From Marsupella aquatica (taxonomy: Eukaryota > Plantae > Marchantiophyta): a stretch of DNA of 64,000 nucleotides. The position numbers and the translations under genes were made by a program. A model generated the notes under the pieces. That model was not told where the DNA came from. It did not search any database and saw only the letters and a program-made list of their open reading frames with translations. Of this stretch, positions 6,095-54,015 are shown piece by piece; within the stretch, counting starts at the first letter, position 1; every line of letters begins with the position of its first letter. Where the stretch lies: assembly GCA_973895155.1 (NCBI GenBank), contig OZ316892.1, positions 22,235,168 through 22,299,167 on the forward strand. Direction: 5' to 3'.

Positions 6095-6195
6095 GGGGAG
6101 CCAACCCTTTGTAGTGCACCAGTCCATCAGTCCGCGCGCCAGCTTCAACCCCAGCTCTCTCGTTCTCTCTAGGTCGCCACTACTATCTCCTCTGA

Positions 6196-27393: not shown

Positions 27394-27494
27394 TCAGAGG
27401 AGATAGTAGTGGCAACCTAGAGAGAACGAGAGAGCTGGGGTCGAAGCTGGCGCGCGGACTGATGGACTGGTGCACTACAAAGGGTTGGCTCCCC

Positions 27495-27501
27495 TTTTAT
27501 A
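27495..27501 (-). promoter_or_regulatory. TATA box for the A2 LTR-internal ORF
   Basis: TATAAAA on the minus strand, at the same position as 6088-6094 in A1. Confidence 0.6.
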
Positions 27502-32659: not shown

Positions 32660-34131
32660 TGTGATGCCTAGCTAGGAATCACTAGGCCAGTTAAGTGGGG
32701 AAAAGGAGGTGTACCCTATAAACACATTAGTATAGTAACAAAAACAAGGAAAATATAAACAATTAAGGGTGACTATGGAACCCGGGCCGTGGCCGGAGGT
32801 AAGGACGTCGGGGGAGAGAACACAATTAGGGTTAGGGCGTGCTAAGCATCGGCGGCTAGGGGTAACCAACGGGAGGAAAAACTAGAGGAGGAGAGGGGTA
32901 AGGACCGCTTGCGAGGAATGGTGGCTCATTTGCAAGCACGAACTGGGCAGACAACTACGGAAGGCCAACTACTATCAGCTGCTTAGGCAAGCACTCGGGG
33001 CGGGAGCAAATACCAACGATCGAGTCAAGGAGGGTATGAGAAACGTCAATCAAGCAGCACATTTTTGGGGATGCCTGTTCGAACGGGCAACTGAGTACAT
33101 TAGGACTTACGAGGATGAAGAATCGGAGAGAGCAGCTCGAGAACGGCAGGAGCTCGCTCGACTATGGGAGCTACAGAAGTCCGCCTTCTTAGGAGGAGAA
33201 ATCATCAAGGCCGAGTTCTTGTGGACTCCTACTGCCAATCAGCTCGATGACCTTTTGTTTTGCGAAGACAGAATTGTCGGCATTTGGGAAGCCATCAACC
33301 GCTGCAACAACGCGCACTAGGAGTTGAAGGGTAGCACGGAGGGGTGGACAAAGGCAACTGTGCTAGGAGAAACATCCACGGCAGCCGAGATGAAGAGGAA
33401 AGGAAATAACAACAAAGAGGCCACCCCGACAAAAAGAATGAGGTCGGCGGCACCAAGGAAGCCAGTAGAGCAGCAGAATAGGAGGCAGGGAGAAGCCAAA
33501 GAGGAGGAGGTCGATCCCATCAATGCCATTCCAACAAAGGATGACACCTAGAAAGGCTGGGCGGCGACCCTACCAGAGGAAGTGCAATTACATTTTGCAC
33601 GGGAGGAGGATGCATGCTTTACGGCCATGCAGACCAAGAAGTACGAGGGCTTCATGGCCGGATCCGGCTTGGAAGCCTTTGTAAGATTACCATGGCTGAA
33701 GCCGGAGGTGCCGGACTCAGACTTATTAGAATTCGTGGGATCATGGGAACCCGAGACCAATTCCACGAGGGTGTATGGGAAGGATTTCTATCTCACTCCC
33801 CGGGTGATTGACGAGGTGTTTGGCTTGCCAATGGGTAATAAGACCAAGGTTGATACCAGGAAGACCTTACCTGACAAAGAGTTTCGGACGTTCCCAGGAC
33901 CATCAACGAAGAATGGCTTCTTCCGGAATACCTGCACCAACCCGCACATCAGAGAGATGATCAATTTCTTGCGGGTGACCATGCATTGTAACTTGCCGAG
34001 GGCAGAGATCGGCAAGGCTTAGGTCTACCTGGTAGAAAGGCCAGACCCAAGCTGGGATTACAACGGGTACCTCCTCAACCAACTGAAGAAGATCTTGAAG
34101 GAGGAACAGCAGGTGATTGGTGTGGGAAGCG
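32660..34131 (+). mobile_element. Truncated, decayed LTR of family B (copy C1) with a pseudogenised LTR ORF
   Basis: Starts TGTGATGCCTAG, like the B LTR. ORF fragments 33036-33320, 33324-33551 and 33582-34022 match the 1228-aa protein, with TGG/CAG>TAG stops. Confidence 0.9.
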
Positions 34132-37100: not shown

Positions 37101-37913
37101 AGGAGCTTGCGTCCCTGACGGCCAGCTTCAAGGCCGACCTACGAGAGAAGGACAACCAGCTCGACCAGACTTATGCCAAGATGAATAAAATGGAGTTTGA
37201 GGTCTAATGGAGCTCAACAAAGAGCTAAGAGCAACCTAGGAGGAGAGGGCTACCTTCAAGAAGGAATTGGAGGAAGCCCATAAGGAGCTGGAGGAGGCGT
37301 GCAAGGACCTGGACGAAGTGCAGGAAGAGTTGGAGGAAAGCACGCGGAAGCTGGAAAACTTACAACGGCAAGCCGACAACCAAACGGAGCGGCTGAAGAA
37401 ACAAGCCGCAGTATTTAAGTGCTTGGCTTCTTCCAGACCAACTCCAACTGGGGCAACCAAGTTACCAGGAGTGGTACTGGCCTAAGGACAAGCCGCGCCA
37501 CTTGCACCAGTGCCGGAGGTAAGTGGGAAGGGGCCAGCTGCCGAACCAGAAAAGAAGAAGAAGCGGAAACCTTCTGGGTCAAGGAGTAATACGGCTCCAC
37601 AGGCCATGGTGACTAAGGAGGTAAACCCAGCACCGACCTCAGGCAGGGTCACGACAGAGGATCCAACTACCCTAGAAGGAGGGGAGGGCAAACCCAAGGC
37701 CGGGATACTCGGTAATGAAGCCGAGGTACCGAAACTGCCACTTGAGTGTGCAGGGGAGGCCGTAGCCAAGGCTGATGCCGAAGCTGATGCCGATGCCAAA
37801 GCCGAGGGTGGACCCAGTCAGGCCGATGGAGAGTTGACTCAGTCCAGGGCAGGTAATCTGTCAGAGAACAAACCTACGGCAGTGGCTGAGGAGGAAGTGT
37901 TGGGGGCGTCCAC
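34132..37913 (+). mobile_element. Decayed LTR of family B (copy C2), 5' part, interrupted by the full-length element
   Basis: Second TGTGATGCCTAG start at 34132. Fragments 34472-37913 are colinear with the 1228-aa ORF and contain many stops. Confidence 0.9.
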
Positions 37914-38834
37914 TGTGGTGCGTCCCATGGCTCCCTAAACCCAAGAAACCCCCCAGCTCAAGCCGATTCCCGCAGGTTTCGTGCTTGGCGAGGCCGTTTC
38001 CGCGGCTTAGCGGCATGGGACGCTGCTAACCTTCTACTACTACTATTAACATTTTACACACATATACTGGACAGATCCTTCATCGGGTCATGAGATACGT
38101 AGCCGGCCTAATATAGGCCTTCCCCTGTCTTCCCCTGTCTTCCCCTCCGTCTTGTTAGGTATGTTTGGATTCCGCCGCCGGAATGATCCCCAATAGGCTT
38201 GGTTAAGCCGCTAAGACCTCTCTCAGCTCGACACATCCAACTCTCACTCCCCTGCTTACTTTCCTTCCTTCTGTTGATGTGGGCACTCTTCACACAAGTT
38301 AATGCGACACACAAATAGCAAAATGACTCATTCTGACTGAGTCATACCATGCACTTGCCATACAAACAGTACATCTCATACACAAGTTCTGCGAACTAAG
38401 CCGTGAGGCCAACTCTATTCAGCTCTTAGGCATGAGGAAACATGAATATACACAAGGGTCACTGTATGACTAACCGAGAGCTTCTCGTACTACTTGATCC
38501 CAGCCCGGCTGGTGCAAACTAAAAACTTGCTAAAGAAGAGGCCCTGAGCTCCCCGCTGCCCAGGTACTTATCCTGGTAGTGGATCCGCCATTCTTTGCAT
38601 CGTAAGCCTAATCTACTTAACAGTAATCTACTTGCCCGAATCTACCTATGTACAGCAAGGCAGGAGCACAAGTGTTGCTCCTACCAGTGGGACCGCAATC
38701 CCACTAAGCTAAGTGTCAGGGCCGCTCCTGGTTCTGATCCTAATCCTAAACGTGGAGATCCGCGCCCGCCCTGCCCACTCACGCCTCCTCCCTCCACGTC
38801 CGCCTTCCCTAAAAGGAACGGCGCCCTTGCACCG

Positions 38835-41800
38835 TCACGACACCGGTGGTGGATCCTCAATGGACGCCCCCAACACTTCCTCCTCAGCCACTGCCGTTGG
38901 CCCGCCTACTGACAGATTACCTGCCCTTGACCGAGTCAACTCTCCATCGGCCTGACTGGGTCCACCTTCGGCTTCAGCCTCGACACCGGCCTCGGCAATA
39001 CCCACGGCTTCGGCCTCAGCCACTCCCACGGCTTCGGCTTCAGCCACTCCCTCGGCTTCGGCCTCAGCCACCCCCACGGCTTCGGCCTCCCCTTCCCCTA
39101 GGGTAGTTGGATCCTTAGCCGTGACCCTGTCTGGGGTCGGTGCTGGGTCTACCTCCTTGATCACCACGGCCTGTGAAGTCGTATTACTCCTTGACCCTGG
39201 AGGTTTCCGCTTCTTCTTCGTTGGTGGCTCGGCAGCTGGTCCCTTCCCCTTCCCACTTACTTCCGGCACTGGTGCAGTTGACGCGGCTTGTCCTTCGGCA
39301 ATTACCACCCCTGGTAACTGGTTTGTCCCAACGGGAGATGGACCTGCTACAGCTAAGCATTTAAATACTGCGGCTTGTTTCTTCAGCCGCTCTGTTTGGT
39401 TGTCGGCCCGCCGCTGTAGGTTCTCCATCTTCCTCGTGATTTCCTCCAACTCCTCTTGGGTTTCATCCAGGTCCTTACGTGCCCCCTCCAGCTCGTTTTT
39501 GGCCTCCTCCTGCTCCCTGTGGGCTTCCTCCAATTCCTTCTTCAAGGTAGCCCTCTCCTCCTGGGTTGCTCTTAGCTCCTTGTCGAGCTCTGCAATGATG
39601 ACAGACTCCATCTGGTTCATCTTGGCGTAAGTCTGTTCGAGCATCTCGTCCTTCTCCCTTAGGTCGGCCTTGAAGCTGGCCGTCAGGGACGCAAGCTCCT
39701 GCTGCAGCGCCATAATCCCTTGATAGGATTTCCCTAACTCGACCTCCTTCTGCTCAAGGGCTCCGCGGATTTTCTCGAGCTCCCCTTTCAACGCCCATTC
39801 CTTTCTTTGGGTCTCCGCCATGGCCCGGCTGTTGGCTGTTATGTGGGCCTCCTCTGTATTCTTCAGCTCTTGCTTCCACTTTTCCCTCTCTTTGATCGTG
39901 TCGGCCAACTCTTCCTGCGTCTGAGTCAGTTTATCCTTGATATTCTGATTATCAGCCTGCGCGGCGTCCAACTGCCCCTGCATGATGTTCAGCTCATGTT
40001 GTTTAATCCGCAGTTCATCTTGGGCTTTCTTGGCCGCCCTTAGATCTTCAATCTCGGCTCCCATCCTCCTAAGCCGCCGAATGACCTCGTCCTTCTTGCT
40101 TCTCTCTAAAGCCACCGCTTCTTCTAATTGGTGCTTCTCCAACTGCTCCCTATGGAAAAAGGGTCCTATCTCCAACTCCTCTCCAAAGATGCCGAGCGCA
40201 AGTTCCCCACACATCTCACCATACTCCATGGCTCTATTCTTAGCGTAGGTGGAGTAAGTAGAAGTGATCGGCATCGCCCATCGTGGCCTCTGCTCCCAAG
40301 CCGTCCTGCGGATCTCTTCAATCGTGGCTAGAGGTTTGCTTCCTTTTTCGGCTAGCCGCCTGATGTCCTCCGGCCAATCTCCTCCTGGTAAATCCTTTTC
40401 CTTAGCCAGGGCGGCCTCTTCCTCCTGCTTGATTCGCTCCTGAAATTCCTGCACCGTCTGTTTTATGCCGTCGAAGCTCGGGGGAGCAACATCTGGTGGG
40501 GGAGACTCAGGGCTACTCTGCTGGTTGGGGTCCCCTCGCACTACCCTTGGAAGTGTGGGGACAAACCGGCCACAGGTCCTTACTCCTGGAACGTGATGGT
40601 CCGACCCATAGCCGGAATTATCATGGCTGCAGTCCTCCACTGCCTCCTCTACCTCTTGGACGTCCGGCTTCTCCCTCTCCTCTTCGTCGGTAGGAGCTTC
40701 AGGCAATTCTGCCTCAGATTCGGAGCTTGAGGTTCCCACGTACATTCGAACACCTGGCTTGGATTCCGGCCTGATTCTCTCCTTGTCTCCAGCAAAGGGG
40801 TTTTCTCTTGTGAGCCGGTGTAGGCCTACCTCTGTAGTAGTGTCCTGCATTGTTGCCGTTGCCGTTGTTGTTGCCGATGTCGATTTCTTTTCTTTCTCCA
40901 GTAGTTTCAGCAGACTCTGCATGCCTGGTTGCTGCATCGGCAAGTCTTCCTTCCTGGGCCTAAACACCTGCTCGATCGTAGGACTAACAGGTGGTTGAGG
41001 CTTCTCAGCCAACGGCCTCGGCGTTGGAGCTTCCTCGGGTGCCCTTACCTGCAGGGGAAGTACCGGGGCAAAAGTCTGACCTCTGGCATACCGGCACAAC
41101 AGCGGCATGTGATAGCCAAGCCGCGACACGCTCCCCATGCCGATTACCTGCTGCTCCTCCTTTAAGATCTTCTTCAATTGGTTGAGGAGGTACCCGTTGT
41201 AGTCCCGGCTTGGGTCTGGCCTTTCTGCCAGATAGACCTGTGCCTTGCCGATCTCTGCCCTCGGCAAGTTACAATGCATGGTCACCCGCAAGAAGTCGAT
41301 CATCTCTCCTATGTGCGGGTTGGTGCAGGTGTTCCGGAAGAAGCCATTCTTCGTTGATGGCCCGGGGAACGACCGGAACTCCTTGTCAGGCAAGGTCTTC
41401 CTGGTATCAACTTTGGTCTTATTGCCTATCGGCAGGCCAAACACTTCGGCAATTACCTTGGGAGTAAGATAGAAATCCCTCCCATATATCCTCGTGCAAT
41501 TGGTCTCGGGTTCCCATGACCCCACGAATTCTAATAGGTCTGACTCCGGTACCTCCGGCTTCAGCCATGGTAATCTTACAAAGGCCTCCAAGCCGGATCC
41601 GGCCATGAAGCCTTGGTACTTCTTGGTCTGCATGGCCGTAAAGCATGCATCCTCCTCCCGTGCAAAATGTAGTTGCACCTCCACCGGTAGGGTTGCCGCC
41701 CAGCCCTTCCAGGTGTCATCCCTGGTTGGAATGGCCTTGATGGGATCGACCTCCTCCTCTTCGGCTTCTCCCTGCCTCCTGCTCTGCTGCTCGGCTGGCT

Positions 41801-42521
41801 TCTTTGGTGCCGCCGACCTCATTCTTTTTGCCGGGGTGGCTTCATCGTTGATGGCTCCCTTCCTCTTCATCTCTGCTGCCGTGGAGGTTTCTCCTAGCAA
41901 CGTTGCCTGGGTCCACCTTTCCGTGCTACCCTTTAATTCCCAGTGTATGTCGTTGCAGTTCTTGATGGCCTCTCGGATGCCGACGACGCTGTCTTTGCAA
42001 AACAGAAGATTGTCGAGTTGATTGGAAGTAGGCGTCCACAGGAACTCGTCGTTGATGAGTTCGCCTCCTAAGAAAGCCGTCTTCTGCAGCTCCCACAATC
42101 GAGCGAGCTCCTGCCGTTCTCGAGCTGCCCTTTCTGACTCCTCGTCCTCGTAAGTCTTGATGTACTCAGTTGCCCGTTCGAACAGGCATCCCCAGAAATG
42201 TGCCGCTTGATTGACGTTGCTCATACCCTCCTTAGGTTGATCGTCGGTATCAATTCTCTCCCCGAGTGCTTGCCTAAGCAGCTGACAGTAGTTGGCCTCC
42301 CGTAGTTGTCTGCCTAGTTCGTGCTCGCAAATGAGCCACCATCTCCTGCAAGCGCTCCTTACCCCTCTCCTCTGCCGGTCCTTCTTCCCGTTGATCCTTC
42401 CTAGCCGCCGACGCTTAACGCGCCCTAACCCTAATCGGGTTTTCACCCTCAGCCTTACCTCCGGCCTCTGCCCGGGTTCCATGGTTGCCCCTAATTGTTT
42501 ATATTTTCCTTGTTTTGTCAC
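38835..42521 (-). CDS. LTR-internal ORF of 1228 codons (likely start ATG 42224 or 42482); homologous to the family A LTR protein, with a long coiled coil
   Basis: Intact ORF wholly inside the LTR; motif LPW..EFVGSW...RIYGRDFYLTPKVIAEVFGLP.G; EAEAVGVA repeats at the C-terminus. Confidence 0.9.
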   Translation of the reverse strand: MTKQGKYKQLGATMEPGQRPEVRLRVKTRLGLGRVKRRRLGRINGKKDRQRRGVRSACRRWWLICEHELGRQLREANYCQLLRQALGERIDTDDQPKEGMSNVNQAAHFWGCLFERATEYIKTYEDEESERAARERQELARLWELQKTAFLGGELINDEFLWTPTSNQLDNLLFCKDSVVGIREAIKNCNDIHWELKGSTERWTQATLLGETSTAAEMKRKGAINDEATPAKRMRSAAPKKPAEQQSRRQGEAEEEEVDPIKAIPTRDDTWKGWAATLPVEVQLHFAREEDACFTAMQTKKYQGFMAGSGLEAFVRLPWLKPEVPESDLLEFVGSWEPETNCTRIYGRDFYLTPKVIAEVFGLPIGNKTKVDTRKTLPDKEFRSFPGPSTKNGFFRNTCTNPHIGEMIDFLRVTMHCNLPRAEIGKAQVYLAERPDPSRDYNGYLLNQLKKILKEEQQVIGMGSVSRLGYHMPLLCRYARGQTFAPVLPLQVRAPEEAPTPRPLAEKPQPPVSPTIEQVFRPRKEDLPMQQPGMQSLLKLLEKEKKSTSATTTATATMQDTTTEVGLHRLTRENPFAGDKERIRPESKPGVRMYVGTSSSESEAELPEAPTDEEEREKPDVQEVEEAVEDCSHDNSGYGSDHHVPGVRTCGRFVPTLPRVVRGDPNQQSSPESPPPDVAPPSFDGIKQTVQEFQERIKQEEEAALAKEKDLPGGDWPEDIRRLAEKGSKPLATIEEIRRTAWEQRPRWAMPITSTYSTYAKNRAMEYGEMCGELALGIFGEELEIGPFFHREQLEKHQLEEAVALERSKKDEVIRRLRRMGAEIEDLRAAKKAQDELRIKQHELNIMQGQLDAAQADNQNIKDKLTQTQEELADTIKEREKWKQELKNTEEAHITANSRAMAETQRKEWALKGELEKIRGALEQKEVELGKSYQGIMALQQELASLTASFKADLREKDEMLEQTYAKMNQMESVIIAELDKELRATQEERATLKKELEEAHREQEEAKNELEGARKDLDETQEELEEITRKMENLQRRADNQTERLKKQAAVFKCLAVAGPSPVGTNQLPGVVIAEGQAASTAPVPEVSGKGKGPAAEPPTKKKRKPPGSRSNTTSQAVVIKEVDPAPTPDRVTAKDPTTLGEGEAEAVGVAEAEAEGVAEAEAVGVAEAEAVGIAEAGVEAEAEGGPSQADGELTRSRAGNLSVGGPTAVAEEEVLGASIEDPPPVS
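42498..42503 (-). promoter_or_regulatory. Candidate TATA box for the LTR-internal gene
   Basis: TATAAA ~95 nt inside the LTR, conserved in both B LTRs, C1 (32754) and C2 (34226). Confidence 0.45.
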
Positions 42522-42585
42522 TATACTAAGGTGTTCCTAGGGTGCCTTCCTGCTTTACCCACTTAACCGGCCGAGTGATTCCTAT

Positions 42586-45500
42586 CTAGGCATCACATAG
42601 CTCCCCACTTAATTGTGAAGCGTCCTCGCGAACAACTTCATCTTCGTCCATATAGTATTTCTTGAGGCGGTCATAATGGATGTGAACTGGATATACCTCT
42701 CCCGTAATGTTGGCCAATTGTACGGAGCCATTGGGGAACATCATGGTTACTCTAAAGGGTCCTAACCAGCGAGTGTAAAGCTTTCCTGGAAACCTACTAT
42801 ACCTACTGTCATAAAGTAGCACAAGATCACCGGTATGAATACTAACTACTTTTAACCTTTTATCATACTGCTGCTTCATGATATTCTGTCTATATTCTAC
42901 TCTCTCGGCTGAAATCATTCTCGCTTCCTCTAAAGCTTCTAACCTATATTCTCGCTCCTTTAGGCTCTCCTCCGCTGAGGCTCTTTCCTCAATTGTAACT
43001 TGAAATGTCGGTATCTCAAGTTGCATGGGTACCAGGGCTTCTTGTCCAAAGGTTAAGAAGAAGGGTGTATGACCGGTAGTGGATTTATAGGCCAGATTGT
43101 AAGCAAAAACAGCAGCAAACAATTTATCATCCCAATCGAGTTTGTTTTGAGCTACTGTCTTGTTCAATATCTTTCCTATGATTCCGTTTGCTCGTTCTGT
43201 CAACCCGTTTGCCTTTGGATGGTAGGGAGTAGTAGGCCTATGTTTAACTAAATACTGCTCAATTAAACGACTAATTATATCATTCAAAAAATGGGTTCCT
43301 CTATCACTAACTAATTCTAGGGATGCTCCATACCTGGTGAAGATCTGCTCATACATGAATCTAGCCGTAGTAATTGCATCATCCTTCGTTGTTGGTCTGG
43401 CCTCTACCCATTTAGTTGCATAATCCGTAGCCAGGATTATGTACTTGTTCCGTCGAGGGTGGGTCAGTGGTTTCAGAGGTCCAATGTAATCAATACCCCA
43501 CTTCTCGAATGGTGCCAGAGGTAGAATAGGGTGCAGTGGATGCCTGGTGGACGCCCTTGGTCCTCCCGCTCGTTGACAAGGATCGCATTGTTTGATAAAC
43601 TGATAGACATCTTTGTGCAAGGTGGGCCACCAGTAACCGGCATTTAATATCTTCTTAGACGTGGTTACTGGGGCAAAATGTCCTCCGGCCTCCTCTCCAT
43701 GCATGGCCCGTAGGACTCGTTTTACCTCTCTCTTTTCCAAACACCTTTGAATCGTGCCGTTGATTCCATGCTTGTGCAGTATGCCTTTAATGCACTGATA
43801 CTGTCTGACCTTCCGCACAAAGACTGCGGCTTGCTCTCGGCTTAATCCTGGCTGTAATCTGGAAGTGCTGAGAAATTGTAAAATCTCAGGGTACCATGTA
43901 CTAGCTATTTCCACAACGAATAGCTCCTCGTCGGGGAATCGATCATCGATGCAATCCGTGGCAGGTTTACCTGTGATCCTTGAAAAGAAGTCGGCATTGG
44001 CATGTAACTTTCCCGGCTTGATCCTCAGCTCATAGTCAAACTCCTGTAATAGCAAAATCCATCTTGCTACTCTGCCTGTAAGGTCCGGCTTATTGACTAG
44101 GTACTTCAAACTTTCATGATCAGTATGAAAGATTACCTTGTACCCTAGTAAATAATGCCTAAACTTTTTACAAGAATAAATGACTCCTAATGCTTCTCTT
44201 TCCGTGGTAGAGTAGTTCCGTTCGGCATCGGCAAGCTGACGGCTTGCGAAGTATATGGGATGGTCCCTTCCTTTCTCATCCAACTGACTTAGTACTGAGC
44301 CAATACAGAAGCCCGAGACATCTACAAAAACATGAAAATCTTTGTTCCAGTCCGGTGCTATCATGACTGGGGCCTCTACTAACATCTGCTTCAATTCTAC
44401 CACCGCTGTGACTCGTTCGGGTGTGGGTTCGAAGTCTGCTCCTGCCTTGAGCATATTGGTTAATGGTAAAGCCAGCTTGGCAAAATCCTTGATGAACCGG
44501 CGATAGTAACCAATGCATCCCAAGAAGGATCTTACATCCTTTATGTTCTTAGGTTGCATGATATCTAGCCATACTGCTAGCTTACCTTTGTCAATCTCAA
44601 TGCCCTTCCTTGATACCTTGTGACCTAGTAGCACCCCCTCGGTTACTGCAAAAAAACATTTATCTGGGTGTAACTTGAGACCCACCTCTCTACATCTCAT
44701 GAAGGTTTTCCTGAGGTATTTAGCATGTTTCGATGCCTTCCCGAATACTGCAAAGTCATCAATGAAGATTTCCATGAACTTTCTCAAGTAATCATGAAAA
44801 ATGTTCACCATTAATCGTTGGAACATAGCTGGTGCGTTGCAGAGTCCAAACGGCATACGATTGAAGACATAGATCCCCCATTCCGTGATGAAGGCCGTCT
44901 TGATTTGGTCTTCCTGCCGAATCCTGATTTGGTTATAACCAGAGTATCCATCCATGAATGAATATAGTTCATGACTGGCTACCATGTCTAGTACCATATC
45001 AGTAAACGGTAAAGGAAAATGGTCTTTTAATGTTGCTTCATTCAGCTTCCTGTAATCCTGACAAACCCGGATCTTGGGTTTACCATCGGGTCCAGCTTTC
45101 TTGGGAACTATCACAATTGGAGACACCCAGTCTGAATGCAGGACTGGAGTGATGAATCCAGCTTCCACTAGTTTGTCGATTTCTGTTTTGACCAGCAGGG
45201 AATACTTCGGGTTCATCCTTCGAATTGGTTGTCGAAATGATTTGGCTCCTAACATGAGATCAATTCGATGTTCCCCTAGTGTTGGATCTACTCCCTTTAG
45301 ATCTTGGTGACTCCATGCAAACACATCCTGAAATTCAATCAATAAGTCACTGATCTCTTTCTCGAGCTCAGGTGCTAGGTTTCTCCCTAAGTTCAGTTCT
45401 CTTCCCTCTCCTAAGTCGAGCTTCCGATATTGCCGTGCTTGGATCATATTAATCTGCTTCTTCAAATTCGGGTCCAGTTCGGCTTCCAGTCTCTCTAATC

Positions 45501-45852
45501 TCATACCTCCATAAACTGGGATCTCGGCTGGACTAGCCGAGTCGGTCCCTTCCTTGGTGTCCATAGATTGTCCCCTTACCGGTCTATTCGGTTTTGAATT
45601 AGTGGTCGGCTCCCCTTCCTGCCTTGGCTCTAGATCGTGTCTGTCCATCTCATCCACCTCTTGCTCCTGAGAGTTAGGCCGCTGTGCTCTCTCGGCTTCT
45701 AATAGGGCCTCAATTTGTTCTGCCCTCGTAATCGGCTTGTATGCCGATCCCTTGGTATTTAATTCCTTGCCGATGATCGATGGCGTTGTGGACCCCGTCG
45801 GCTCTGCCACAACGCCTGCAGAAAATCCACTGTCCCTGCTACTGCTCCCCAC
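42586..45852 (-). CDS. pol: Pol: reverse transcriptase, RNase H, integrase
   Basis: RT motifs DYRKLN, MPFGLCNAP and FIDDF; RNase H VDVS..YSTTEREAL; integrase HHCC zinc finger, WGIDYIGP, SDRGTHF and YHPKANGLTER. The stop codon lies inside the 3' LTR. Confidence 0.97.
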   Translation of the reverse strand: MGSSSRDSGFSAGVVAEPTGSTTPSIIGKELNTKGSAYKPITRAEQIEALLEAERAQRPNSQEQEVDEMDRHDLEPRQEGEPTTNSKPNRPVRGQSMDTKEGTDSASPAEIPVYGGMRLERLEAELDPNLKKQINMIQARQYRKLDLGEGRELNLGRNLAPELEKEISDLLIEFQDVFAWSHQDLKGVDPTLGEHRIDLMLGAKSFRQPIRRMNPKYSLLVKTEIDKLVEAGFITPVLHSDWVSPIVIVPKKAGPDGKPKIRVCQDYRKLNEATLKDHFPLPFTDMVLDMVASHELYSFMDGYSGYNQIRIRQEDQIKTAFITEWGIYVFNRMPFGLCNAPAMFQRLMVNIFHDYLRKFMEIFIDDFAVFGKASKHAKYLRKTFMRCREVGLKLHPDKCFFAVTEGVLLGHKVSRKGIEIDKGKLAVWLDIMQPKNIKDVRSFLGCIGYYRRFIKDFAKLALPLTNMLKAGADFEPTPERVTAVVELKQMLVEAPVMIAPDWNKDFHVFVDVSGFCIGSVLSQLDEKGRDHPIYFASRQLADAERNYSTTEREALGVIYSCKKFRHYLLGYKVIFHTDHESLKYLVNKPDLTGRVARWILLLQEFDYELRIKPGKLHANADFFSRITGKPATDCIDDRFPDEELFVVEIASTWYPEILQFLSTSRLQPGLSREQAAVFVRKVRQYQCIKGILHKHGINGTIQRCLEKREVKRVLRAMHGEEAGGHFAPVTTSKKILNAGYWWPTLHKDVYQFIKQCDPCQRAGGPRASTRHPLHPILPLAPFEKWGIDYIGPLKPLTHPRRNKYIILATDYATKWVEARPTTKDDAITTARFMYEQIFTRYGASLELVSDRGTHFLNDIISRLIEQYLVKHRPTTPYHPKANGLTERANGIIGKILNKTVAQNKLDWDDKLFAAVFAYNLAYKSTTGHTPFFLTFGQEALVPMQLEIPTFQVTIEERASAEESLKEREYRLEALEEARMISAERVEYRQNIMKQQYDKRLKVVSIHTGDLVLLYDSRYSRFPGKLYTRWLGPFRVTMMFPNGSVQLANITGEVYPVHIHYDRLKKYYMDEDEVVREDASQLSGELCDA
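42600..42611 (-). other. Polypurine tract (TAAGTGGGGAGC)
   Basis: Purine-rich tract 2 nt before the 3' LTR in element orientation. Confidence 0.75.
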
Positions 45853-48560
45853 TTAGCCGTTTCATCCAATTGGTCTACATCCTTTACTTCCTCCGGAATT
45901 TCAGCTAAAAAGGTGGATTCTATTGTAAAGCAGTCCTCGACCTCTTCGTCTTCTTCTTCCAAGTCACCTTCCATTGGTTCTTGCCATAATCCGCTGGGGG
46001 GTACCTCTGGTCCAAAGACACCTTCTTCGGTTAGGTTAGTGAGGCATTCTAACCAACGTACTTCATCGGCTGACTCCAGTCCACTATCGTACCCATCTAC
46101 TTCCCTTATGCTTTTCCTACGGTCATCCTTAGTGTCCCAGGATACCGTGATAGAGGGGGTCCCGAAAGTGAACTGCTTTTTACCCCAATCTTCTATTACC
46201 TCGGCTAGGTACAGCCATGGCCTACCAATCAATAGCCGGAATGATGTAGGATTTACCGGCTTCATTACTACATAGTTAATGCTAAAGAAGATACCTCCTA
46301 TCTCTGTCTTGATGCCGGTTAACACTCCCGTCGGAATGACCTGATATCCATTGGCCATGTTCAACACTCTTCCAGTCATCTCCGGTGTTAGACCCCACCC
46401 TTTTGCTGTTGAATCAATCATAATACATACCCCTGATCCTCCATCGATGGGTACCCGTAGTAATAATTCTCCTTGAATCATTAATGGTAATGCTGGGGCT
46501 CCTTGATCTTCTTCTATCATTAGTACGTCGGATCTGGTTGCTACCTTGGGTAATCTCGGCTTGCCGAGAATAGCCTTCCTTAATTGCTTCCGGAAGTACG
46601 GGCTATTTTTCAATAGTTGACCTACTGTTGCCGAGACTCTAGATTCTAGTACATCTTTAGCCAGGTCATAGGGAACAATCGGCTTCTCTTCTGGTGGTGT
46701 TTCCGTCTTGGATTCGGCCAGTTTTGCCACGCTAGTCTCCACAGCTGTTGGGTCTTCCGAAGCAAACAATGCTTTTGCTCGTTTTACATCCTTGGCAATG
46801 GCTTCGGTATTCTCCAGGGTTTCTAATTCTCTTAGTTGTTCCTTAACACTAGCCGTAACAGAGGGGTAGAACAACTTAGGATGATCTCGATTGAAGTCGC
46901 TATCTTGTGAAGGATTGGTTTCACTGGTGGGCTCATGGCTTACCTGTATTGCCGGAGCCCTCCTTTCTCCTTCTGTTGATGTTGACGAAGAGTCGATCCT
47001 TTCCTCCGTAACCTTCCCTTTATTTTTGGCCAGCCCATCCCACCTTTCCTTCCTTCTGGTAGATCGAGTAGAGACCCGGTAGCAATCATGATCTAAATCC
47101 TCCTCTGAGAAGGTTGATAGGGCTTCGGCCTCATCATCAGATGGTACGAACTCTGCCTCGGCATCCTCTTGCCATCCTAGTTCGATGTGGTTGATTTGAA
47201 CTCCTCCGGGGGTAGTACCTGGCGGTAAGATCTTGATCGGCAAAAGCTTATGATTTGCGGCCAGGCCTGCCAACCAAGTAGGACATTGCCCTAGCATATG
47301 ACCTTCCTGTCGGCATCCCATACATAGCTGAGCTGGTTGTCCATCACCCTGTTTGCGTGCATTCGGGCATTCTCTAGCAAAATGGCCAGGTTGACCACGA
47401 TTATAGCACGCCGCAAATCTTTGCACATTCGGCCTAGGAGGTACTGACGGGTTCTGAATAATCCGAGGATACATCTCTCCTGGATTGTTCCTTAACCCTG
47501 ACCACAGAGATGCAGGTCTGTTGGATAGGTCTCGTGCTCCAGTCTCACTGATGCCGAAAACACTATCAGCGGCATCTCCCAAAAAGTACTCTACTTCTCC
47601 CTGACATGGTCTGATCTCGGCCACATGCCGAACATGATTAGTATTAAGCTTAGGACACGCATCTTTATGGTGTCCGGTTTTATAACATAAGGCACACCAT
47701 ACAGAGCTATCCTCCTGTACTACCTTCTTCTTTGGTTTTACCTCTGCAATGATAGCCTTAAGTTGCTCGGTAAGGGCTACGATGTTATCTGGTGGCTTAG
47801 CCTCCATCTTGACTTTCGTCTTCCCTCTCCTTCTGCCCTTCCTTTTCCTAGTTTTTTCTTCTTCAGAACTAGAAGATGACTCACTCTTGCTACTCCCACT
47901 ATCCGAGCTTGACTTATCACTTCTAGACTTCTTGGAATGTTTCTTCTTCTTATCTTTTTTCTTATGGGGTGATCCCTCCTCTGATGAGGAACTCTCAGAC
48001 TTAAGCTGTTTCTTCCGGCTTGTGATATCTGCATTAATGTATAATTGAATATCCTTAATTGCTTCGGCTAAAGTCTCCGGGTTCTCCTTCCTAATTGCAA
48101 AACTCATCTTCTGTGGCAAAGCATTCACTAACCATTGAAGTTGCATACCTTCAGATGCATTGGTCTTTGTACGTCTTACCAGTTTCTAAAAGCGTTGCAA
48201 GAACTTCCTGAAGGATTTGTTCTCCTTGAACCGAAGTTGTCCCAACTTCAGCACTGCTAGTTCTGAAGTTCCAATGGGTCGAAACTCCTTAACAAAGAGT
48301 GTTTTGAAGATATCCCAGATGGCTTGATCTTCCACATCTAATGCTCTGTACCAAGGCCTAGCCTCACCCTTGAACAGGCCGGGAAGAATCTGCATCTTGA
48401 TGGCCGATTCTCCATTTGCTGCAGCGGTTCCCTCGAAATCATCCAACCATTCGTCCGGATCCTCATCTCCTCTCCCATGAAATGCCTTGTAATGTATGCG
48501 TGACCGCTGGCTCAATCTGGTCCCTGGCCTCTCGTCTGGCCGTGCCTCTGGTTCCCCCAT
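45759..48560 (-). pseudogene. gag: Gag-protease ORF with one in-frame stop (48186-48188)
   Basis: Capsid-like segment (FHGRGDEDPDEWL..EARPWY); three CCHC knuckles (one with C>R); protease IDGGSG. ORFs 48186-48560 and 45759-48146 share one frame. A possible upstream ATG at 48743 is followed by two stops. Confidence 0.9.
45769..45828 (-). promoter_or_regulatory. Putative programmed -1 ribosomal frameshift signal
   Basis: G GAT TTT heptamer in the gag-PR frame (45828-45822), 5-nt spacer, perfect 10-bp stem GGCGTTGTGG/CCACAACGCC. The loop GCCGA can pair with downstream TCGGC. Pol is in the -1 frame. Confidence 0.75.
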
Positions 48561-48765
48561 GTCGGTTGGAGACTCACTTCTCCTTACCGACTCTTCTTCT
48601 GGTATGTCTTCTTCGACGCCACTTCCAGTTTCGGAGCTACCAGCTCTTTCTGCCCCTCTCAGTCGCTGTGTATCATGCCACCCGGCGAGCTGCTTCCCTC
48701 GGCGTAAGGTCAGTCATTACCTACGCTTCCGTTCTAACTTCATATCTCACGGCTTAAGAAATGCC

Positions 48766-48782
48766 CCCTCCATCTAGCGCCA
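48766..48782 (-). other. Primer-binding site, tRNA-Asn type
   Basis: TGGCGCTAGATGGAGGG 4 nt after the 5' LTR; complementary, with one mismatch, to the plant tRNA-Asn(GTT) 3' end CCCTCCTTCTAGCGCCA (tRNA sequence recalled, not searched). Confidence 0.8.
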
Positions 48783-48786
48783 AAAA

Positions 48787-51700
48787 TGTGGTGCGTCCCA
48801 TGGCTCCCTAAACCCAAGAAACCCCCCAGCTCAAGCCGATTCCCGCAGGTTTCGTGCTTGGCGAGGCCGTTTCCGCGGCTTAGCGGCATGGGACGCTGCT
48901 AACCTTCTACTACTACTATTAACATTTTATACACATATACTGGACAGATCCTTCATCGGGTCATGAGATACGTAGCCGGCCTAATATAGGCCTTCCCCTG
49001 TCTTCCCCTGTCTTCCCCTCCGTCTTGTTAGGTATGTTTGGATTCCGCCGCCGGAATGATCCCCAATAGGCTTGGTTAAGCCGCTAAGACCTCTCTCAGC
49101 TCGACACATCCAACTCTCACTCCCCTGCTTACTTTCCTTCCTTCTGTTGATGTGGGCACTCTTCACACAAGTTAATGCGACACACAAATAGCAAAATGAC
49201 TCATTCTGACTGAGTCATACCATGCACTTGCCATACAAACAGTACATCTCATACACAAGTTCTGCGAACTAAGCCGTGAGGCCAACTCTATTCAGCTCTT
49301 AGGCATGAGGAAACATGAATATACACAAGGGTCACTGTATGACTAACCGAGAGCTTCTCGTACTACTTGATCCCAGCCCGGCTGGTGCAAACTAAAAACT
49401 TGCTAAAGAAGAGGCCCTGAGCTCCCCGCTGCCCAGGTACTTATCCTGGTAGTGGATCCGCCATTCTTTGCATCGTAAGCCTAATCTACTTAACAGTAAT
49501 CTACTTGCCCGAATCTACCTATGTACAGCAAGGCAGGAGCACAAGTGTTGCTCCTACCAGTGGGACCGCAATCCCACTAAGCTAAGTGTCAGGGCCGCTC
49601 CTGGTTCTGATCCTAATCCTAAACGTGGAGATCCGCGCCCGCCCTGCCCACTCACGCCTCCTCCCTCCACGTCCGCCCTCCCTAAAAGGAACGGTGCCCT
49701 TGCACCGTCACGACACCGGTGGTGGATCCTCAATGGACGCCCCCAACACTTCCTCCTCAGCCACTGCCGTTGGCCCGCCTATTGACAGATTACCTGCCCT
49801 TGACCGAGTCAACTCTCCATCGGCCTGATTGGGTCCACCTTCGGCTTCAGCCTCGACACCGGCCTCGGCAATACCCACGGCTTCGGCCTCAGCCACTCCC
49901 ACGGCTTCGGCTTCAGCCACTCCCTCGGCTTCGGCCTCAGCCACCCCCACGGCTTCGGCCTCCCCTTCCCCTAGGGTAGTTGGATCCTTAGCCGTGACCC
50001 TGTCTGGGGTCGGTGCTGGGTCTACCTCCTTGATCACCACGGCCTGTGAAGTCGTATTACTCCTTGACCCTGGAGGTTTCCGCTTCTTCTTCGTTGGTGG
50101 CTCGGCAGCTCGTCCCTTCCCCTTCCCACTTACTTCCGGCACTGGTGCAGTTGACGCGGCTTGTCCTTCGGCAATTACCACCCCTGGTAACTGGTTTGTC
50201 CCAACGGGAGATGGACCTGCTGCAGCTAAGCATTTAAATACTGCGGCTTGTTTCTTCAGCCGCTCTGTTTGGTTGTCGGCCCGCCGCTGTAGGTTCTCCA
50301 TCTTCCTCGTGATTTCCTCCAACTCCTCTTGGGTTTCATCCAGGTCCTTACGTGCCCCCTCCAGCTCGTTTTTGGCCTCCTCCTGCTCCCTGTGGGCTTC
50401 CTCCAATTCCTTCTTCAAGGTAGCCCTCTCCTCCTGGGTTGCTCTTAGCTCCTTGTCGAGCTCTGCAATGATGACAGACTCCATCTGGTTCATCTTGGCG
50501 TAAGTCTGTTCGAGCATCTCATCCTTCTCCCTTAGGTCGGCCTTGAAGCTGGCCGTCAGGGACGCAAGCTCCTGCTGCAGCGCCATAATCCCTTGATAGG
50601 ATTTCCCTAACTCGACCTCCTTCTGCTCAAGGGCTCCGCGGATTTTCTCGAGCTCCCCTTTCAACGCCCATTCCTTTCTTTGGGTCTCCGCCATGGCCCG
50701 GCTGTTGGCTGTTATGTGGGCCTCCTCTGTATTCTTCAGCTCTTGCTTCCACTTTTCCCTCTCTTTGATCGTGTCGGCCAACTCTTCCTGCGTCTGAGTC
50801 AGTTTATCCTTGATATTCTGATTATCAGCCTGCGCGGCGTCCAACTGCCCCTGCATGATGTTCAGCTCATGTTGTTTAATCCGCAGTTCATCTTGGGCTT
50901 TCTTGGCCGCCCTTAGATCTTCAATCTCGGCTCCCATCCTCCTAAGCCGCCGAATGACCTCGTCCTTCTTGCTTCTCTCTAAAGCCACCGCTTCTTCTAA
51001 TTGGTGCTTCTCCAACTGCTCCCTATGGAAAAAGGGTCCTATCTCCAACTCCTCTCCAAAGATGCCGAGCGCAAGTTCCCCACACATCTCACCATACTCC
51101 ATGGCTCTATTCTTAGCGTAGGTGGAGTAAGTAGAAGTGATCGGCATCGCCCATCGTGGCCTCTGCTCCCAAGCCGTCCTGCGGATCTCTTCAATCGTGG
51201 CTAGAGGTTTGCTTCCTTTTTCGGCTAGCCGCCTGATGTCCTCCGGCCAATCTCCTCCTGGTAAATCCTTTTCCTTAGCCAGGGCGGCCTCTTCCTCCTG
51301 CTTGATTCGCTCCTGAAATTCCTGCACCGTCTGTTTTATGCCGTCGAAGCTCGGGGGAGCAACATCTGGTGGGGGAGACTCAGGGCTACTCTGCTGGTTG
51401 GGGTCCCCTCGCACTACCCTTGGAAGTGTGGGGACAAACCGGCCACAGGTCCTTACTCCTGGAACGTGATGGTCCGACCCATAGCCGGAATTATCATGGC
51501 TGCAGTCCTCCACTGCCTCCTCTACCTCTTGGACGTCCGGCTTCTCCCTCTCCTCTTCGTCGGTAGGAGCTTCAGGCAATTCTGCCTCAGATTCGGAGCT
51601 TGAGGTTCCCACGTACATTCGAACACCTGGCTTGGATTCCGGCCTGATTCTCTCCTTGTCTCCAGCAAAGGGGTTTTCTCTTGTGAGCCGGTGTAGGCCT

Positions 51701-53470
51701 ACCTCTGTAGTAGTGTCCTGCATTGTTGCCGTTGCCGTTGTTGTTGCCGATGCCGATTTCTTTTCTTTCTCCAGTAGTTTCAGCAGACTCTGCATGCCTG
51801 GTTGCTGCATCGGCAAGTCTTCCTTCCTGGGCCTAAACACCTGCTCGATCGTAGGACTAACAGGTGGTTGAGGCTTCTCAGCCAACGGCCTCGGCGTTGG
51901 AGCTTCCTCGGGTGCCCTTACCTGCAGGGGAAGTACCGGGGCAAAAGTCTGACCTCTGGCATACCGGCACAACAGCGGCATGTGATAGCCAAGCCGCGAC
52001 ACGCTCCCCATGCCGATTACCTGCTGCTCCTCCTTTAAGATCTTCTTCAATTGGTTGAGGAGGTACCCGTTGTAGTCCCGGCTTGGGTCTGGCCTTTCTG
52101 CCAGATAGACCTGTGCCTTGCCGATCTCTGCCCTCGGCAAGTTACAATGCATGGTCACCCGCAAGAAGTCGATCATCTCTCCTATGTGCGGGTTGGTGCA
52201 GGTGTTCCGGAAGAAGCCATTCTTCGTTGATGGCCCGGGGAACGACCGGAACTCCTTGTCAGGCAAGGTCTTCCTGGTATCAACTTTGGTCTTATTGCCT
52301 ATCGGCAGGCCAAACACTTCGGCAATTACCTTGGGAGTAAGATAGAAATCCCTCCCATATATCCTCGTGCAATTGGTCTCGGGTTCCCATGACCCCACGA
52401 ATTCTAATAGGTCTGACTCCGGTACCTCCGGCTTCAGCCATGGTAATCTTACAAAGGCCTCCAAGCCGGATCCGGCCATGAAGCCTTGGTACTTCTTGGT
52501 CTGCATGGCCGTAAAGCATGCATCCTCCTCCCGTGCAAAATGTAGTTGCACCTCCACCGGTAGGGTTGCCGCCCAGCCCTTCCAGGTGTCATCCCTGGTT
52601 GGAATGGCCTTGATGGGATCGACCTCCTCCTCTTCGGCTTCTCCCTGCCTCCTGCTCTGCTGCTCGGCTGGCTTCTTTGGTGCCGCCGACCTCGTTCTTT
52701 TTGCCGGGGTGGCTTCATCGTTGACGGCTCCCTTCCTCTTCATCTCTGCTGCCGTGGAGGTTTCTCCTAGCACCGTTGCCTGGGTCCACCTTTCCGTGCT
52801 ACCCTTTAATTCCCAGTGTATGTCGTTGCAGTTCTTGATGGCCTCTCGGATGCCGACGACGCTGTCTTTGCAAAACAGAAGATCGTCGAGTTGATTGGAA
52901 GTAGGCGTCCACAGGAACTCGTCCTTGATGAGTTCGCCTCCTAAGAAAGCCGTCTTCTGCAGCTCCCACAATCGAGCGAGCTCCTGCCGTTCTCGAGTTG
53001 CCCTTTCTGACTCCTCGTCCTCGTAAGTCTTGATGTACTCAGTTGCCCGTTCGAACAGGCATCCCCAGAAATGTGCCGCTTGATTGACGTTGCTCATACC
53101 CTCCTTAGGTCGATCGTCGGTATCTACTCTCTCCCCGAGTGCTTGCCTAAGCAGCTGACAGTAGTTGGCCTCCCGTAGTCGTCTGCCTAGTTCGTGCTCG
53201 CAAATGAGCCACCATCTCCTGCAAGCGCTCCTTACCCCTCTCCTCTGCCGGTCCTTCTTCCCGTTGATCCTTCCTAGCCGCCGACGCTTAACGCGCCCTA
53301 ACCCTAATCGGGTTTTCACCCTCAGCCTTACCTCCGGCCTCTGCCCGGGTTCCATGGTTGCCCCTAATTGTTTATATTTTCCTTGTTTTGTCACTATACT
53401 AAGGTGTTCCTAGGGTGCCTTCCTGCTTTACCCACTTAACCGGCCGAGTGATTCCTGTCTAGGCATCACA
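48787..53470 (-). repeat. 5' LTR (4,684 bp)
   Basis: Direct repeat of 37914-42597, adjacent to the PBS. Confidence 0.97.
49708..53394 (-). CDS. Second intact copy of the 1228-codon LTR-internal ORF
   Basis: Same length as 38835-42521, with 14 aa differences. Confidence 0.9.
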   Translation of the reverse strand: MTKQGKYKQLGATMEPGQRPEVRLRVKTRLGLGRVKRRRLGRINGKKDRQRRGVRSACRRWWLICEHELGRRLREANYCQLLRQALGERVDTDDRPKEGMSNVNQAAHFWGCLFERATEYIKTYEDEESERATRERQELARLWELQKTAFLGGELIKDEFLWTPTSNQLDDLLFCKDSVVGIREAIKNCNDIHWELKGSTERWTQATVLGETSTAAEMKRKGAVNDEATPAKRTRSAAPKKPAEQQSRRQGEAEEEEVDPIKAIPTRDDTWKGWAATLPVEVQLHFAREEDACFTAMQTKKYQGFMAGSGLEAFVRLPWLKPEVPESDLLEFVGSWEPETNCTRIYGRDFYLTPKVIAEVFGLPIGNKTKVDTRKTLPDKEFRSFPGPSTKNGFFRNTCTNPHIGEMIDFLRVTMHCNLPRAEIGKAQVYLAERPDPSRDYNGYLLNQLKKILKEEQQVIGMGSVSRLGYHMPLLCRYARGQTFAPVLPLQVRAPEEAPTPRPLAEKPQPPVSPTIEQVFRPRKEDLPMQQPGMQSLLKLLEKEKKSASATTTATATMQDTTTEVGLHRLTRENPFAGDKERIRPESKPGVRMYVGTSSSESEAELPEAPTDEEEREKPDVQEVEEAVEDCSHDNSGYGSDHHVPGVRTCGRFVPTLPRVVRGDPNQQSSPESPPPDVAPPSFDGIKQTVQEFQERIKQEEEAALAKEKDLPGGDWPEDIRRLAEKGSKPLATIEEIRRTAWEQRPRWAMPITSTYSTYAKNRAMEYGEMCGELALGIFGEELEIGPFFHREQLEKHQLEEAVALERSKKDEVIRRLRRMGAEIEDLRAAKKAQDELRIKQHELNIMQGQLDAAQADNQNIKDKLTQTQEELADTIKEREKWKQELKNTEEAHITANSRAMAETQRKEWALKGELEKIRGALEQKEVELGKSYQGIMALQQELASLTASFKADLREKDEMLEQTYAKMNQMESVIIAELDKELRATQEERATLKKELEEAHREQEEAKNELEGARKDLDETQEELEEITRKMENLQRRADNQTERLKKQAAVFKCLAAAGPSPVGTNQLPGVVIAEGQAASTAPVPEVSGKGKGRAAEPPTKKKRKPPGSRSNTTSQAVVIKEVDPAPTPDRVTAKDPTTLGEGEAEAVGVAEAEAEGVAEAEAVGVAEAEAVGIAEAGVEAEAEGGPNQADGELTRSRAGNLSIGGPTAVAEEEVLGASIEDPPPVS

Positions 53471-53475
53471 TCCAC

Positions 53476-54015
53476 TGAGGAACAGACACCGTTGCCATGA
53501 CGGTGGTGGAGGGCCGCTCCTTTCAAGGAGGGCGGACGTGGAGGGAGGAGGCGTGAGTGGGCAGGGCAGGCTCAGATCTCTAAGTTTAGGATTAGGATCA
53601 GGACCAGGAGGCGGCCCTGACACTTAGCTTTGTGGGATTGCGATTCCACTGGTAAGAGCAACACTTGTACTTCTGCCTCGCTGTACATAGGTAGATTTAG
53701 TTAGGTAGATTAGGCTTACGCTACAAGGAATTAGGCGGATCCACTACCAGGATAAGTACCTGGGCAGCGGGGAGCTCAGGGCCTCTTCTTTAGCAAGTTT
53801 TTAGTTGCACCAGCCGGGCTGGGATCAAGTAGTAAGAAAAGCTCTCGGTTAGTCATACAGTGACCCTTGTGTATATTCATGTTTCCTCATGCCTAAGAGC
53901 TGAATAGAGTTGGCCTCACAGCTTAGTTTGCAGAGCTTGTGTATGAGATGTACTGTTTGTATGGCAAGTGCATGGTATGACTCAGTCAGAAGGAGTCATT
54001 TTGCTATTTGTGTGT
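53476..54015 (+). mobile_element. 3' remainder of LTR copy C2, truncated ~400 bp before the LTR end
   Basis: Continues C2 after the TSD; matches the reverse complement of ~38310-38860; similarity stops after GCTATTTGTGTGT. Confidence 0.85.

Follow-up and report, generated by a model that had tools for sequence, protein, structure and literature searches.

VANC proteins, which have been described as dicot-specific (PMC13547354), bind short motifs and strip the transposons that encode them of methylation (Hosaka et al. 2017; PMC5735166). Their targets are marked by tandem arrays of these short motifs (PMC5735166). Structurally, VANC proteins are reported to be homologous to the MAIN/PMD proteins (PMC13547354; bioRxiv 2024.09.27.615353), which oppose Polycomb at DNA motifs and include a retrotransposon-encoded member, PMD-A; an anti-Polycomb role has also been proposed for PMDs encoded by transposable elements (bioRxiv 2024.09.27.615353). 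Whether the open reading frames (ORFs) of Athila retrotransposons influence the epigenetics of the element remains to be investigated (PMC12844716). Here we describe a Ty3/gypsy retrotransposon in a stretch of 64,000 nucleotides of contig OZ316892.1 from Marsupella aquatica (hereafter the window), which carries a long gene inside each of its two long terminal repeats (LTRs). We lean towards reading it as a young gypsy element whose LTR accessory gene encodes a likely nuclear, DNA-binding protein with a predicted VANC21-type fold and an anti-silencing role.

A young Ty3/gypsy element with a gene in each LTR

The element occupies positions 37914-53470 on the minus strand (15.6 kb; Table 1) and encodes a gag with a zinc knuckle and a pol in the order reverse transcriptase (RT), RNase H (RH) and integrase. 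Its LTRs are 4,684 bp long each, have TG..CA ends and differ by 20 substitutions and no indels (99.6% identity). The primer-binding site (PBS), TGGCGCTAGATGGAGGG, is presumably of the tRNA-Asn type, and the polypurine tract (PPT) plus two bases adjoins the start of the 3' LTR. As the initial annotation had stated, pol runs through the PPT and stops inside the 3' LTR, where its stop codon forms LTR nucleotides 10-12. The distance between the LTRs, 0.0043, gives an age of about 0.16 million years at a rate of 1.3e-8, which is the substitution rate of grasses; the insertion would be older if liverwort rates are lower. The element is a young Ty3/gypsy retrotransposon. The 14 replacement and 2 silent differences between its 5' and 3' LTRs, many of them in CG/CHG context, look like neutral changes after insertion. 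It is not fully intact: gag contains an in-frame stop near 48188, which is not seen in other copies (contigs of four public runs), and gag-protease and RT lie in different frames.

Across the overlap at 45759-45860 (minus strand), RT is in the -1 frame relative to gag-protease, and a strong hairpin follows 5 nt past the heptamer GGATTTT. This candidate frameshift site sits after the protease, not after gag, and one contig crosses it gap-free; in the close relative P0067, gag-protease and RT form a single frame. The 5' LTR also contains a TATAAAA at 48930, 145 bp from the LTR end, which differs by one base in the 3' LTR and is possibly a second promoter near gag. TATA-like words are likewise found close to the LTR ends of two related loci, L001 and L006.

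Both LTRs contain the intact sense frame that had been noted in each, 1,215 codons long (53355-49708 and 42482-38835, minus strand). In comparisons with two old copies of the same family (family A) in the window, the ratio of nonsynonymous to synonymous substitution rates (dN/dS) from codon 87 onward is 0.17 (95% bootstrap 0.13-0.22, 861 codons) and 0.16, versus 1.3 and 1.6 for codons 1-86 against the same two decayed copies. This ratio had been proposed as a check, with values near 1, together with a lack of transcript or peptide evidence, speaking against a gene. Fisher's test for purifying selection gives p 4e-56, and the core domain of the protein is its most constrained part (dN/dS 0.09-0.11). 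That purifying selection acts on a gene inside the LTR is virtually certain.

Met87 is in register with the initiator methionine of homologues in a profile of six homologous N-termini, from which the LTR protein was left out; this profile matches residues 91-188 of the LTR protein (E 5.8e-6). Because selection begins at Met87, codons 1-86 are neutral and the methionine of the homologues is aligned with it, the sequence comparison indicates that coding probably starts there, which gives a protein of 1,129 aa encoded by about 3.4 kb, or about 72% of each LTR. The gene of more than 1,100 aa in the initial annotation therefore holds for the 1,129 aa under selection, while the first ATG is not supported as its start. 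A TATAAA at LTR +95, which is present ahead of the ORF in all four family-A copies as had been claimed, lies just 21 nt before that first ATG, so that transcription probably starts at or downstream of this ATG. A candidate leader intron in family A has its donor at LTR +140 and its acceptor at +324.

Domains and predicted fold of the LTR protein

The LTR protein consists of an N-terminal domain, a linker, the core domain, a second linker, a helical and coiled-coil region and an acidic tail, and it contains basic motifs resembling nuclear localization signals. For the N-terminal domain, no usable match was found in the Atlas. No transmembrane segment was detected, the top 19-residue Kyte-Doolittle means being 0.98 in family A and 1.33 in a second family, B, both in low-complexity repeats; the protein is thus not of the envelope type.

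A word-index search with the core region gave no match among 1,037 candidates, but a profile search did find relatives: a two-sequence profile retrieved 70 of them from 1.84 billion proteins. Matches to Transposase_32 below the cut-off were obtained for five of 40 scanned homologues (E 0.006 to 1.6e-7) and for two of nine accessory ORFs from related metagenome loci. Two of the 40 (P0170 and P0176) are fusions of the core domain with a DDE_Tnp_4 (PIF/Harbinger-type) fragment, so that in these hosts DNA transposons may carry the domain as well. The Atlas places the domain near Transposase_32 and ATHILA clusters (0.87-0.89), which we treat as leads only. The LTR protein had no Pfam match to the DUF1985/DUF287 sequence family, a PDB sequence search with the domain profile returned weak rows, mostly coiled-coil, and a BFVD fold search gave no match.

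The AlphaFold2 model of the core domain, built from 44 sequences, has a predicted local distance difference test score (pLDDT) of 88.8. In Foldseek its top row is VANC21-DNA (E 0.38, template modelling (TM) score 0.44; all others at most 0.19). With VIA-align, VANC21 is the only one of 48,161 chains with a Z of at least 2 (Z 7.7, root-mean-square deviation (rmsd) 4.8, 206 residues). The corresponding domain of L006, a locus in which the gene lies outside the LTR, is 11% identical to that of the window; its model (pLDDT 88.4) aligns to VANC21 with Z 7.4 and rmsd 3.8 over 185 residues, and the next chain reaches 2.2. The structure prediction that the initial annotation had suggested thus yields VANC21 as the best match of the modelled domain, and going by these models it is very likely that the core domain has a PMD/VANC-type fold.

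A second family and occurrence beyond the window

Two further units of 4 kb, 97% identical to each other, represent family B. They have TG..CA ends, their own 5-bp target-site duplications (TSDs) and a homologous 903-codon ORF, preceded by a TATAAAA at +360 and an acceptor-like pyrimidine tract, with the ATG at +468. The core domains of the two families share 27% identity over 208 aa (E 1e-19), and the family-B ORF has a dN/dS of 0.37 between its copies. Among the common family-B variants listed from reads, 15/31 fall at third codon positions (p 0.06), which is uninformative on selection. At the DNA level, the similarity between A and B is limited to short words, TTAGGATTAGGAT at the gene end and TTCC(A/G)GCGGCGGAA in the last 270 bp, located at LTR +3849 and +4415 in A and at +3159 and +3895 in B (positions of the second motif are approximate). 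These words are possibly conserved RNA signals or signals close to the attachment (att) sites.

The young element lies head-to-head within the gene end of an older family-A LTR, which adjoins a third, truncated copy. The terminal 400 bp of the young LTR are missing from this older copy, which ends in GGTGTCACA with no matching TSD. CpG content is 0.62-0.89 in the young families versus 0.38-0.49 in several older bins; we rejected this excess as a meaningful signal, since age by itself explains the difference.

Family A was found in six public runs from four organisms. In four runs, the matching contigs number 21,729, 36,492, 1,188 and 295 for family A and 7,234, 10,538, 270 and 42 for family B. 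Summed contig depth, which does not equal copy number, is 50-209 thousand for the internal part versus 248-640 thousand for the LTR in X1, and 83-266 thousand versus 362-1,076 thousand in X2. In both, the depth rises at the LTR boundary and stays high over the gene. The initial annotation had considered whether the 4.7-kb repeat might be a local duplication; in public DNA runs it is a family-wide unit.

The closest named pol relatives are from liverworts, with Calypogeia fissa at 69-72% over RT-RH and Riccia and Marchantia lower, while angiosperms reach 41-42% overall. An RT-RH tree of 107 sequences groups the element with Calypogeia and one further protein (support 1.0), and places its RT apart from the angiosperm matches (41-42%) that are without an archaeal-type RNase H (aRH); this tree contains no labelled Athila references. 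Ten clusters of domain homologues were looked up, and the four with species names are all Calypogeia fissa. No Pfam match to a chromodomain follows the integrase, and pol ends about 30 aa beyond the integrase C-terminal motif, which is unlike a chromovirus. An additional aRH, which defines the Tat lineages (TatI-III, Ogre, Retand), was not found in pol by Pfam. Tat lineages without aRH, Z1 and Z2, occur in non-flowering plants (PMC10508981), so that an affiliation with Tat Z is conceivable. The element represents a genuine variant, present across its lineage, of the non-chromovirus gypsy layout.

Relatives with the gene inside or outside the LTR

With an integrase query, 63 metagenome loci were fetched. 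The domain lies downstream of pol on the sense strand in 19/63, the cassette of pre-PPT motif, PPT and TG found in the window is present in 13/63, and 11 loci have both. In seven of these (L001-L005, L007 and L011) the cassette precedes the gene, which is then inside the LTR; in the other four it follows, the gene then being situated downstream of pol and ahead of the LTR. The stretch past the pol-proximal cassette in L001 and L003 is an inverted complement of that ahead of the PBS, which places the LTR start right after pol. The order in L011 is pol, cassette, a 4,544-bp LTR with a 1,082-codon ORF, PBS and gag. The circular contig L006 has pol, a bare purine tract, a 742-codon ORF, the cassette, a 991-bp LTR, PBS and gag, and it is the one among the four outside-type loci with a complete LTR of about 1 kb. 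The domains of the window and of these loci are homologous (hhalign probability 98.6%, E 5e-16).

The initial annotation had suggested that an accessory gene was absorbed into U3, and had advised a search for relatives with the same ORF outside the LTR. Such relatives exist (L006, L014 and L015), alongside those with the gene inside. The deeper branches of an integrase tree (57 sequences) include L014 and L015, so that the outside position is likely ancestral. From this sequence evidence the LTR gene very probably derives from a 3' internal accessory gene. An RT tree unites the clade of the window with the other inside clade (0.986), a grouping that the integrase tree leaves unresolved, and a domain tree places the other inside clade with the outside-type L006, L009 and L017 (0.998), away from A and B. 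As far as these trees go, one move into the LTR and two are both possible.

The cassette behind pol in the window is of the LTR-adjacent type, unlike the pol-proximal tract of outside-type relatives, so the PPT/LTR-start cassette was likely duplicated or moved, in place of a bare switch to a spare tract. Of the upstream PPT shift that had been proposed earlier, the present position of the cassette behind pol stands; a simple switch is the less likely route.

In addition to the LTR-adjacent PPT, a second purine tract with a hairpin is found directly after pol in the outside-type relatives L006 (3730-3775), L009, L010, L014, L015, L017, L032 and L055. Athila has a two-PPT layout. In L018-L021, gypsy single ORFs of about 2,500 aa have a protease-like and a further region following the integrase. 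A scan of viral contigs with the integrase and a metagenome scan with a Calypogeia-type alignment gave no matches.

Proposed function and alternative explanations

We propose that the ancestor had the layout pol, gene, PPT and 1-kb LTR, and that a PPT/LTR-start cassette came to sit directly behind pol, whereupon plus-strand synthesis would place a copy of the gene in the upstream portion of both LTRs. Transcription would start from the gene's own TATA promoter at the LTR 5' end and polyadenylation would occur in a TGTA/T-rich tract about 400-500 bp past the gene stop, so that solo LTRs would stay complete transcription units. The core domain may bind sequences in the LTRs of its own family and the coiled coil may mediate oligomerisation, and the bound LTRs would be kept free of host silencing by DNA methylation or Polycomb. 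Judging from the fold models, we give an even chance to the proposal that the protein counters silencing on the chromatin of its own family. Our widest claim is a tentative one: in a bryophyte gypsy lineage, a sequence-specific anti-silencing gene of the VANC type may have been transferred into the LTR, probably on more than one occasion, which would bring gene, promoter and target together in one repeat.

Several results speak against this proposal. The non-coding parts of the LTRs contain no tandem motif arrays of the VANC type and no 7- or 8-mer in more than three copies; their sole array is a 2.8-copy 10-mer near the LTR end. We rejected TTAG/TTAGG as a target motif, as it is enriched relative to shuffles (e.g. 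14 vs 6.2, 0/300) but was picked post hoc; TTAG is also enriched in the short LTRs of outside-type relatives. A shared fold by itself shows no function, and host PMD proteins take part in silencing as well as in counteracting Polycomb. With a Foldseek E of 0.38, 8-11% identity and Z below 8, the fold scores are of intermediate strength and possibly reflect a common arrangement, VANC21 is absent among the Foldseek rows listed for the L006 model, and the two models drew on partly shared alignments. No window protein reaches the Pfam gathering score for Transposase_32, ATHILA ORF-1, PMD or any other family. For family B, the 24 contig loose ends listed (434 further) include no PBS or PPT and no link to gag-pol. 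Regarding the route into the LTR, the cassette profile was trained on the same 63 loci, which include L030, a decayed and weak case. A relic PPT after the gene was rejected, as the profile scored at most 1.8 and 4.7 bits there (E 10 and 1.6). The initial annotation had pointed to a purine run (38784-38795), which exists but is one of 13 runs of at least 12 purines in the LTR and is unlike the PPT cassette of the family. Finally, the stretch from the gene to the likely poly(A) tract has no canonical TATA that could serve as the gag-pol promoter needed for a placement in U3.

Also rejected was TTAGGGTTAGGG as a telomere repeat, since liverwort telomeres are reported as TTTAGGG (one liverwort paper).

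The alternative that survives best, which we consider possible though less probable than an anti-silencing role, keeps the same gene and architecture but assigns a different task to the protein: that of a chromatin tether directing integration, an activator of LTR transcription, a scaffold for RNA export or particles, or a coiled-coil adaptor of the centromere or axis type. About three quarters of the protein are coiled coil, disordered linker and an N-terminal domain of no known family, the motif arrays of VANC targets were not found, and the published ORFs with related domains (TRP28, PMD, Athila ORF-1) are without a demonstrated function as described in PMC11963269 and PMC7264820. Against these points, the sole structural neighbour of two independent copies of the domain is a DNA-bound anti-silencing factor, it is the core domain that is most constrained, and the missing transmembrane helix takes an envelope-type protein off the list.

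A rather unlikely alternative concerns the position of the gene within the LTR. If it lay in R (or R/U5), one promoter at the 5' end would produce both a short mRNA of the gene that ends in the 5' LTR and a read-through genomic RNA of about 15 kb with two gene copies. Consistent with this, clear TATA boxes are found only upstream of the gene (+95 in A, +360 in B), and a poly(A)-like tract lies downstream. However, the segment behind the gene measures 921 bp in A, 858 bp in B and about 1,220 bp in L011, which is the size of the 991-bp complete LTR of L006 and favours an extended U3. This segment opens with a TTAG-rich stretch resembling the start of the L006 LTR, the gag-pol promoter of an outside-type ancestor must have been located in it, and several LTRs have TATA-like words close to their 3' end. 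These lengths and motifs suggest that the gene is probably in U3 with its own promoter, and not in R.

A local duplication or assembly artefact as the source of the 4.7-kb repeat, or a chance open frame as the source of the ORF, has next to no probability and was ruled out: the locus is a nest of family-A copies including a partial tandem copy, its sense strand is purine-rich and codons 1-86 are open without protein constraint, but the 4,684-bp unit is precisely bordered by TSD, PBS and PPT, family B with its own TSDs and distant relatives repeat the layout, and the frame is under strong purifying selection and has 70 homologues.

Other features of the window

Remnants of the CACTA type with DUF4218, DUF4216 and an Ulp1 protease fragment are located at 21726-23383 and 62045-62518. 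The segment 56734-60111 (plus strand) contains three ORFs, 237-305 aa in length, none assigned to a Pfam family; the first has a DGNHR motif that we take to be ParB-like. Tandem arrays lie at 1253-3481, 29093-30233, 58950-59104 and 61020-61300, with periods of about 407, 21/26, 44 and 40 bp.

Table 1. Coordinates of the young element, its LTR gene and related copies in the window
Feature	Positions	Strand	Details
5' LTR	48787..53470	-	4,684 bp, TG..CA
3' LTR	37914..42597	-	4,684 bp, 20 substitutions relative to 5' LTR
TSD, left	37909..37913		TCCAC
TSD, right	53471..53475		TCCAC
PBS	48765..48782	-	TGGCGCTAGATGGAGGG, 4-nt spacer (four Ts) after 5' LTR
PPT cassette	42598..42632	-	pre-PPT motif, PPT and 2-nt spacer; marks LTR start in relatives
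gag-protease frame	45759..48560	-	one in-frame stop near 48188
RT-RNaseH-integrase	42586..45648	-	single RNase H, chromodomain absent; stop codon at LTR nt 10-12
Slippery-type heptamer	45822..45828	-	GGATTTT then hairpin in gag-protease/pol overlap; candidate -1 ribosomal frameshift
TATAAA	53371..53376	-	LTR +95, kept in all four family-A copies; likely promoter of LTR gene
LTR gene, 5' copy	49708..53097	-	1,129 aa from Met87; frame open from 53355
LTR gene, 3' copy	38835..42224	-	frame open from 42482
N-terminal helical domain	52792..53097	-	conserved, from Met87; common to family B and Calypogeia proteins; no known family
Core domain	51916..52608	-	predicted VANC21/PMD-type fold
Coiled-coil region	50220..50990	-	long; putative, from heptad-like sequence; weak Pfam coiled-coil match only
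Older family-A LTR	34132..37913	+	about 84% identical; ORF broken by stops; split by young element
Older family-A LTR, continuation	53471..54040	+	diverges past about LTR +4270; ends GGTGTCACA
Second old family-A LTR	32660..34133	+	truncated; 87% identical to both others
Family-B solo-LTR-like copy	23824..27860	-	4,037 bp, TG..CA, TSD CTAAA; intact 903-aa ORF 24682-27393; TATAAAA at +360
Family-B solo-LTR-like copy	5730..9736	+	4,007 bp, TSD CAATG; ORF with two stops

Significance and comparison with known systems

A full-text search of the literature, with supplements outside its range, found no description of a long gene in the LTRs of plant retrotransposons, nor of a VANC-like protein encoded by such an element; related cases may be contained in the element tables of PMC6317226 and in the supplements to PMC13547354.

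The inside-type and outside-type relatives show a four- to five-fold growth of the LTR by uptake of a gene. Plants shed LTR retrotransposons by recombination between the LTRs, which normally deletes all coding capacity. Here the same recombination leaves a complete gene for 900-1,130 aa, and the window itself contains an intact solo copy. If the LTR protein works like VANC21, solo LTRs would be trans-acting helpers of their own family, and every solo LTR left by host-driven deletion would on its own supply anti-silencing protein to the entire family. It would then represent a retrotransposon anti-silencing protein of the VANC kind, the use of this fold by mobile elements would predate the split of liverworts and flowering plants, and a function would be suggested for the long-unexplained non-membrane accessory ORFs of Athila/Tat. 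The fold match is a concrete functional lead for retrotransposon accessory ORFs that have been described as unexplained. Pipelines that annotate LTRs as non-coding would miss such genes.

The sag gene of mouse mammary tumour virus (MMTV) encodes a membrane superantigen of about 320 aa. Like the gene described here, it is a protein gene within an LTR, is present twice per provirus and is kept in solo LTRs (PMC9412291); it has a U3 promoter, as the gene described here probably does. There is no homology between the two, and the LTR gene is more than three times longer and resides in a plant retrotransposon. Among plant elements, rice Retrosat2, RIRE3 and RIRE8 also have very long LTRs, and Retrosat2 an extra ORF, but this ORF0 is located upstream of gag-pol and not in the LTR (PMC3485330). 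Soybean Diaspora shares the very long LTRs and a pol that ends near the PPT, but has lost the accessory gene (PMC1142308). A pol that reaches the LTR is also described for Phygy/Selgy, which are short elements free of extra ORFs; the present element is 15.6 kb long and carries a large extra gene.

With VANC21 of the VANDAL21 Mutator-like DNA transposons (PDB 9lnj/9lnk), the LTR protein shares the predicted core fold, a coiled coil beside this domain and the status of a transposon-encoded accessory protein (PMC5735166). It differs in having 8-11% identity, in being encoded in a gypsy LTR and not in a Mutator-like DNA transposon, and in the absence of tandem motif arrays; moreover, it belongs to a lineage of bryophyte type, whereas VANC is dicot-specific as described. 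MAIN, MAIL1, MAIL2 and the retrotransposon-encoded PMD-A fall into the same structural group through the published link between PMD and VANC (bioRxiv 2024.09.27.615353), but the LTR protein is without a Pfam PMD match and is encoded in the LTR.

The closest overall plan is that of the Athila/Tat/Ogre (OTA) elements, which likewise have a non-chromovirus pol, LTRs of up to about 5 kb and a coiled-coil accessory ORF of the same broad domain group (PMD, Transposase_28, Athila ORF-1; Neumann et al. 2019; PMC6317226). Their order of pol, ORF, PPT and LTR recurs in the outside-type relatives L006, L014 and L015, where a sense extra ORF lies between pol and the PPT as is characteristic of Athila; in the window, the gene lies behind the PPT. 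The extra ORFs of these elements are located in the 5' or 3' internal part, and in the excerpts of PMC6317226 their long LTRs are not described as coding. Here, in contrast, the gene fills nearly three quarters of the LTR and survives in solo LTRs, and the RT belongs to a liverwort clade.

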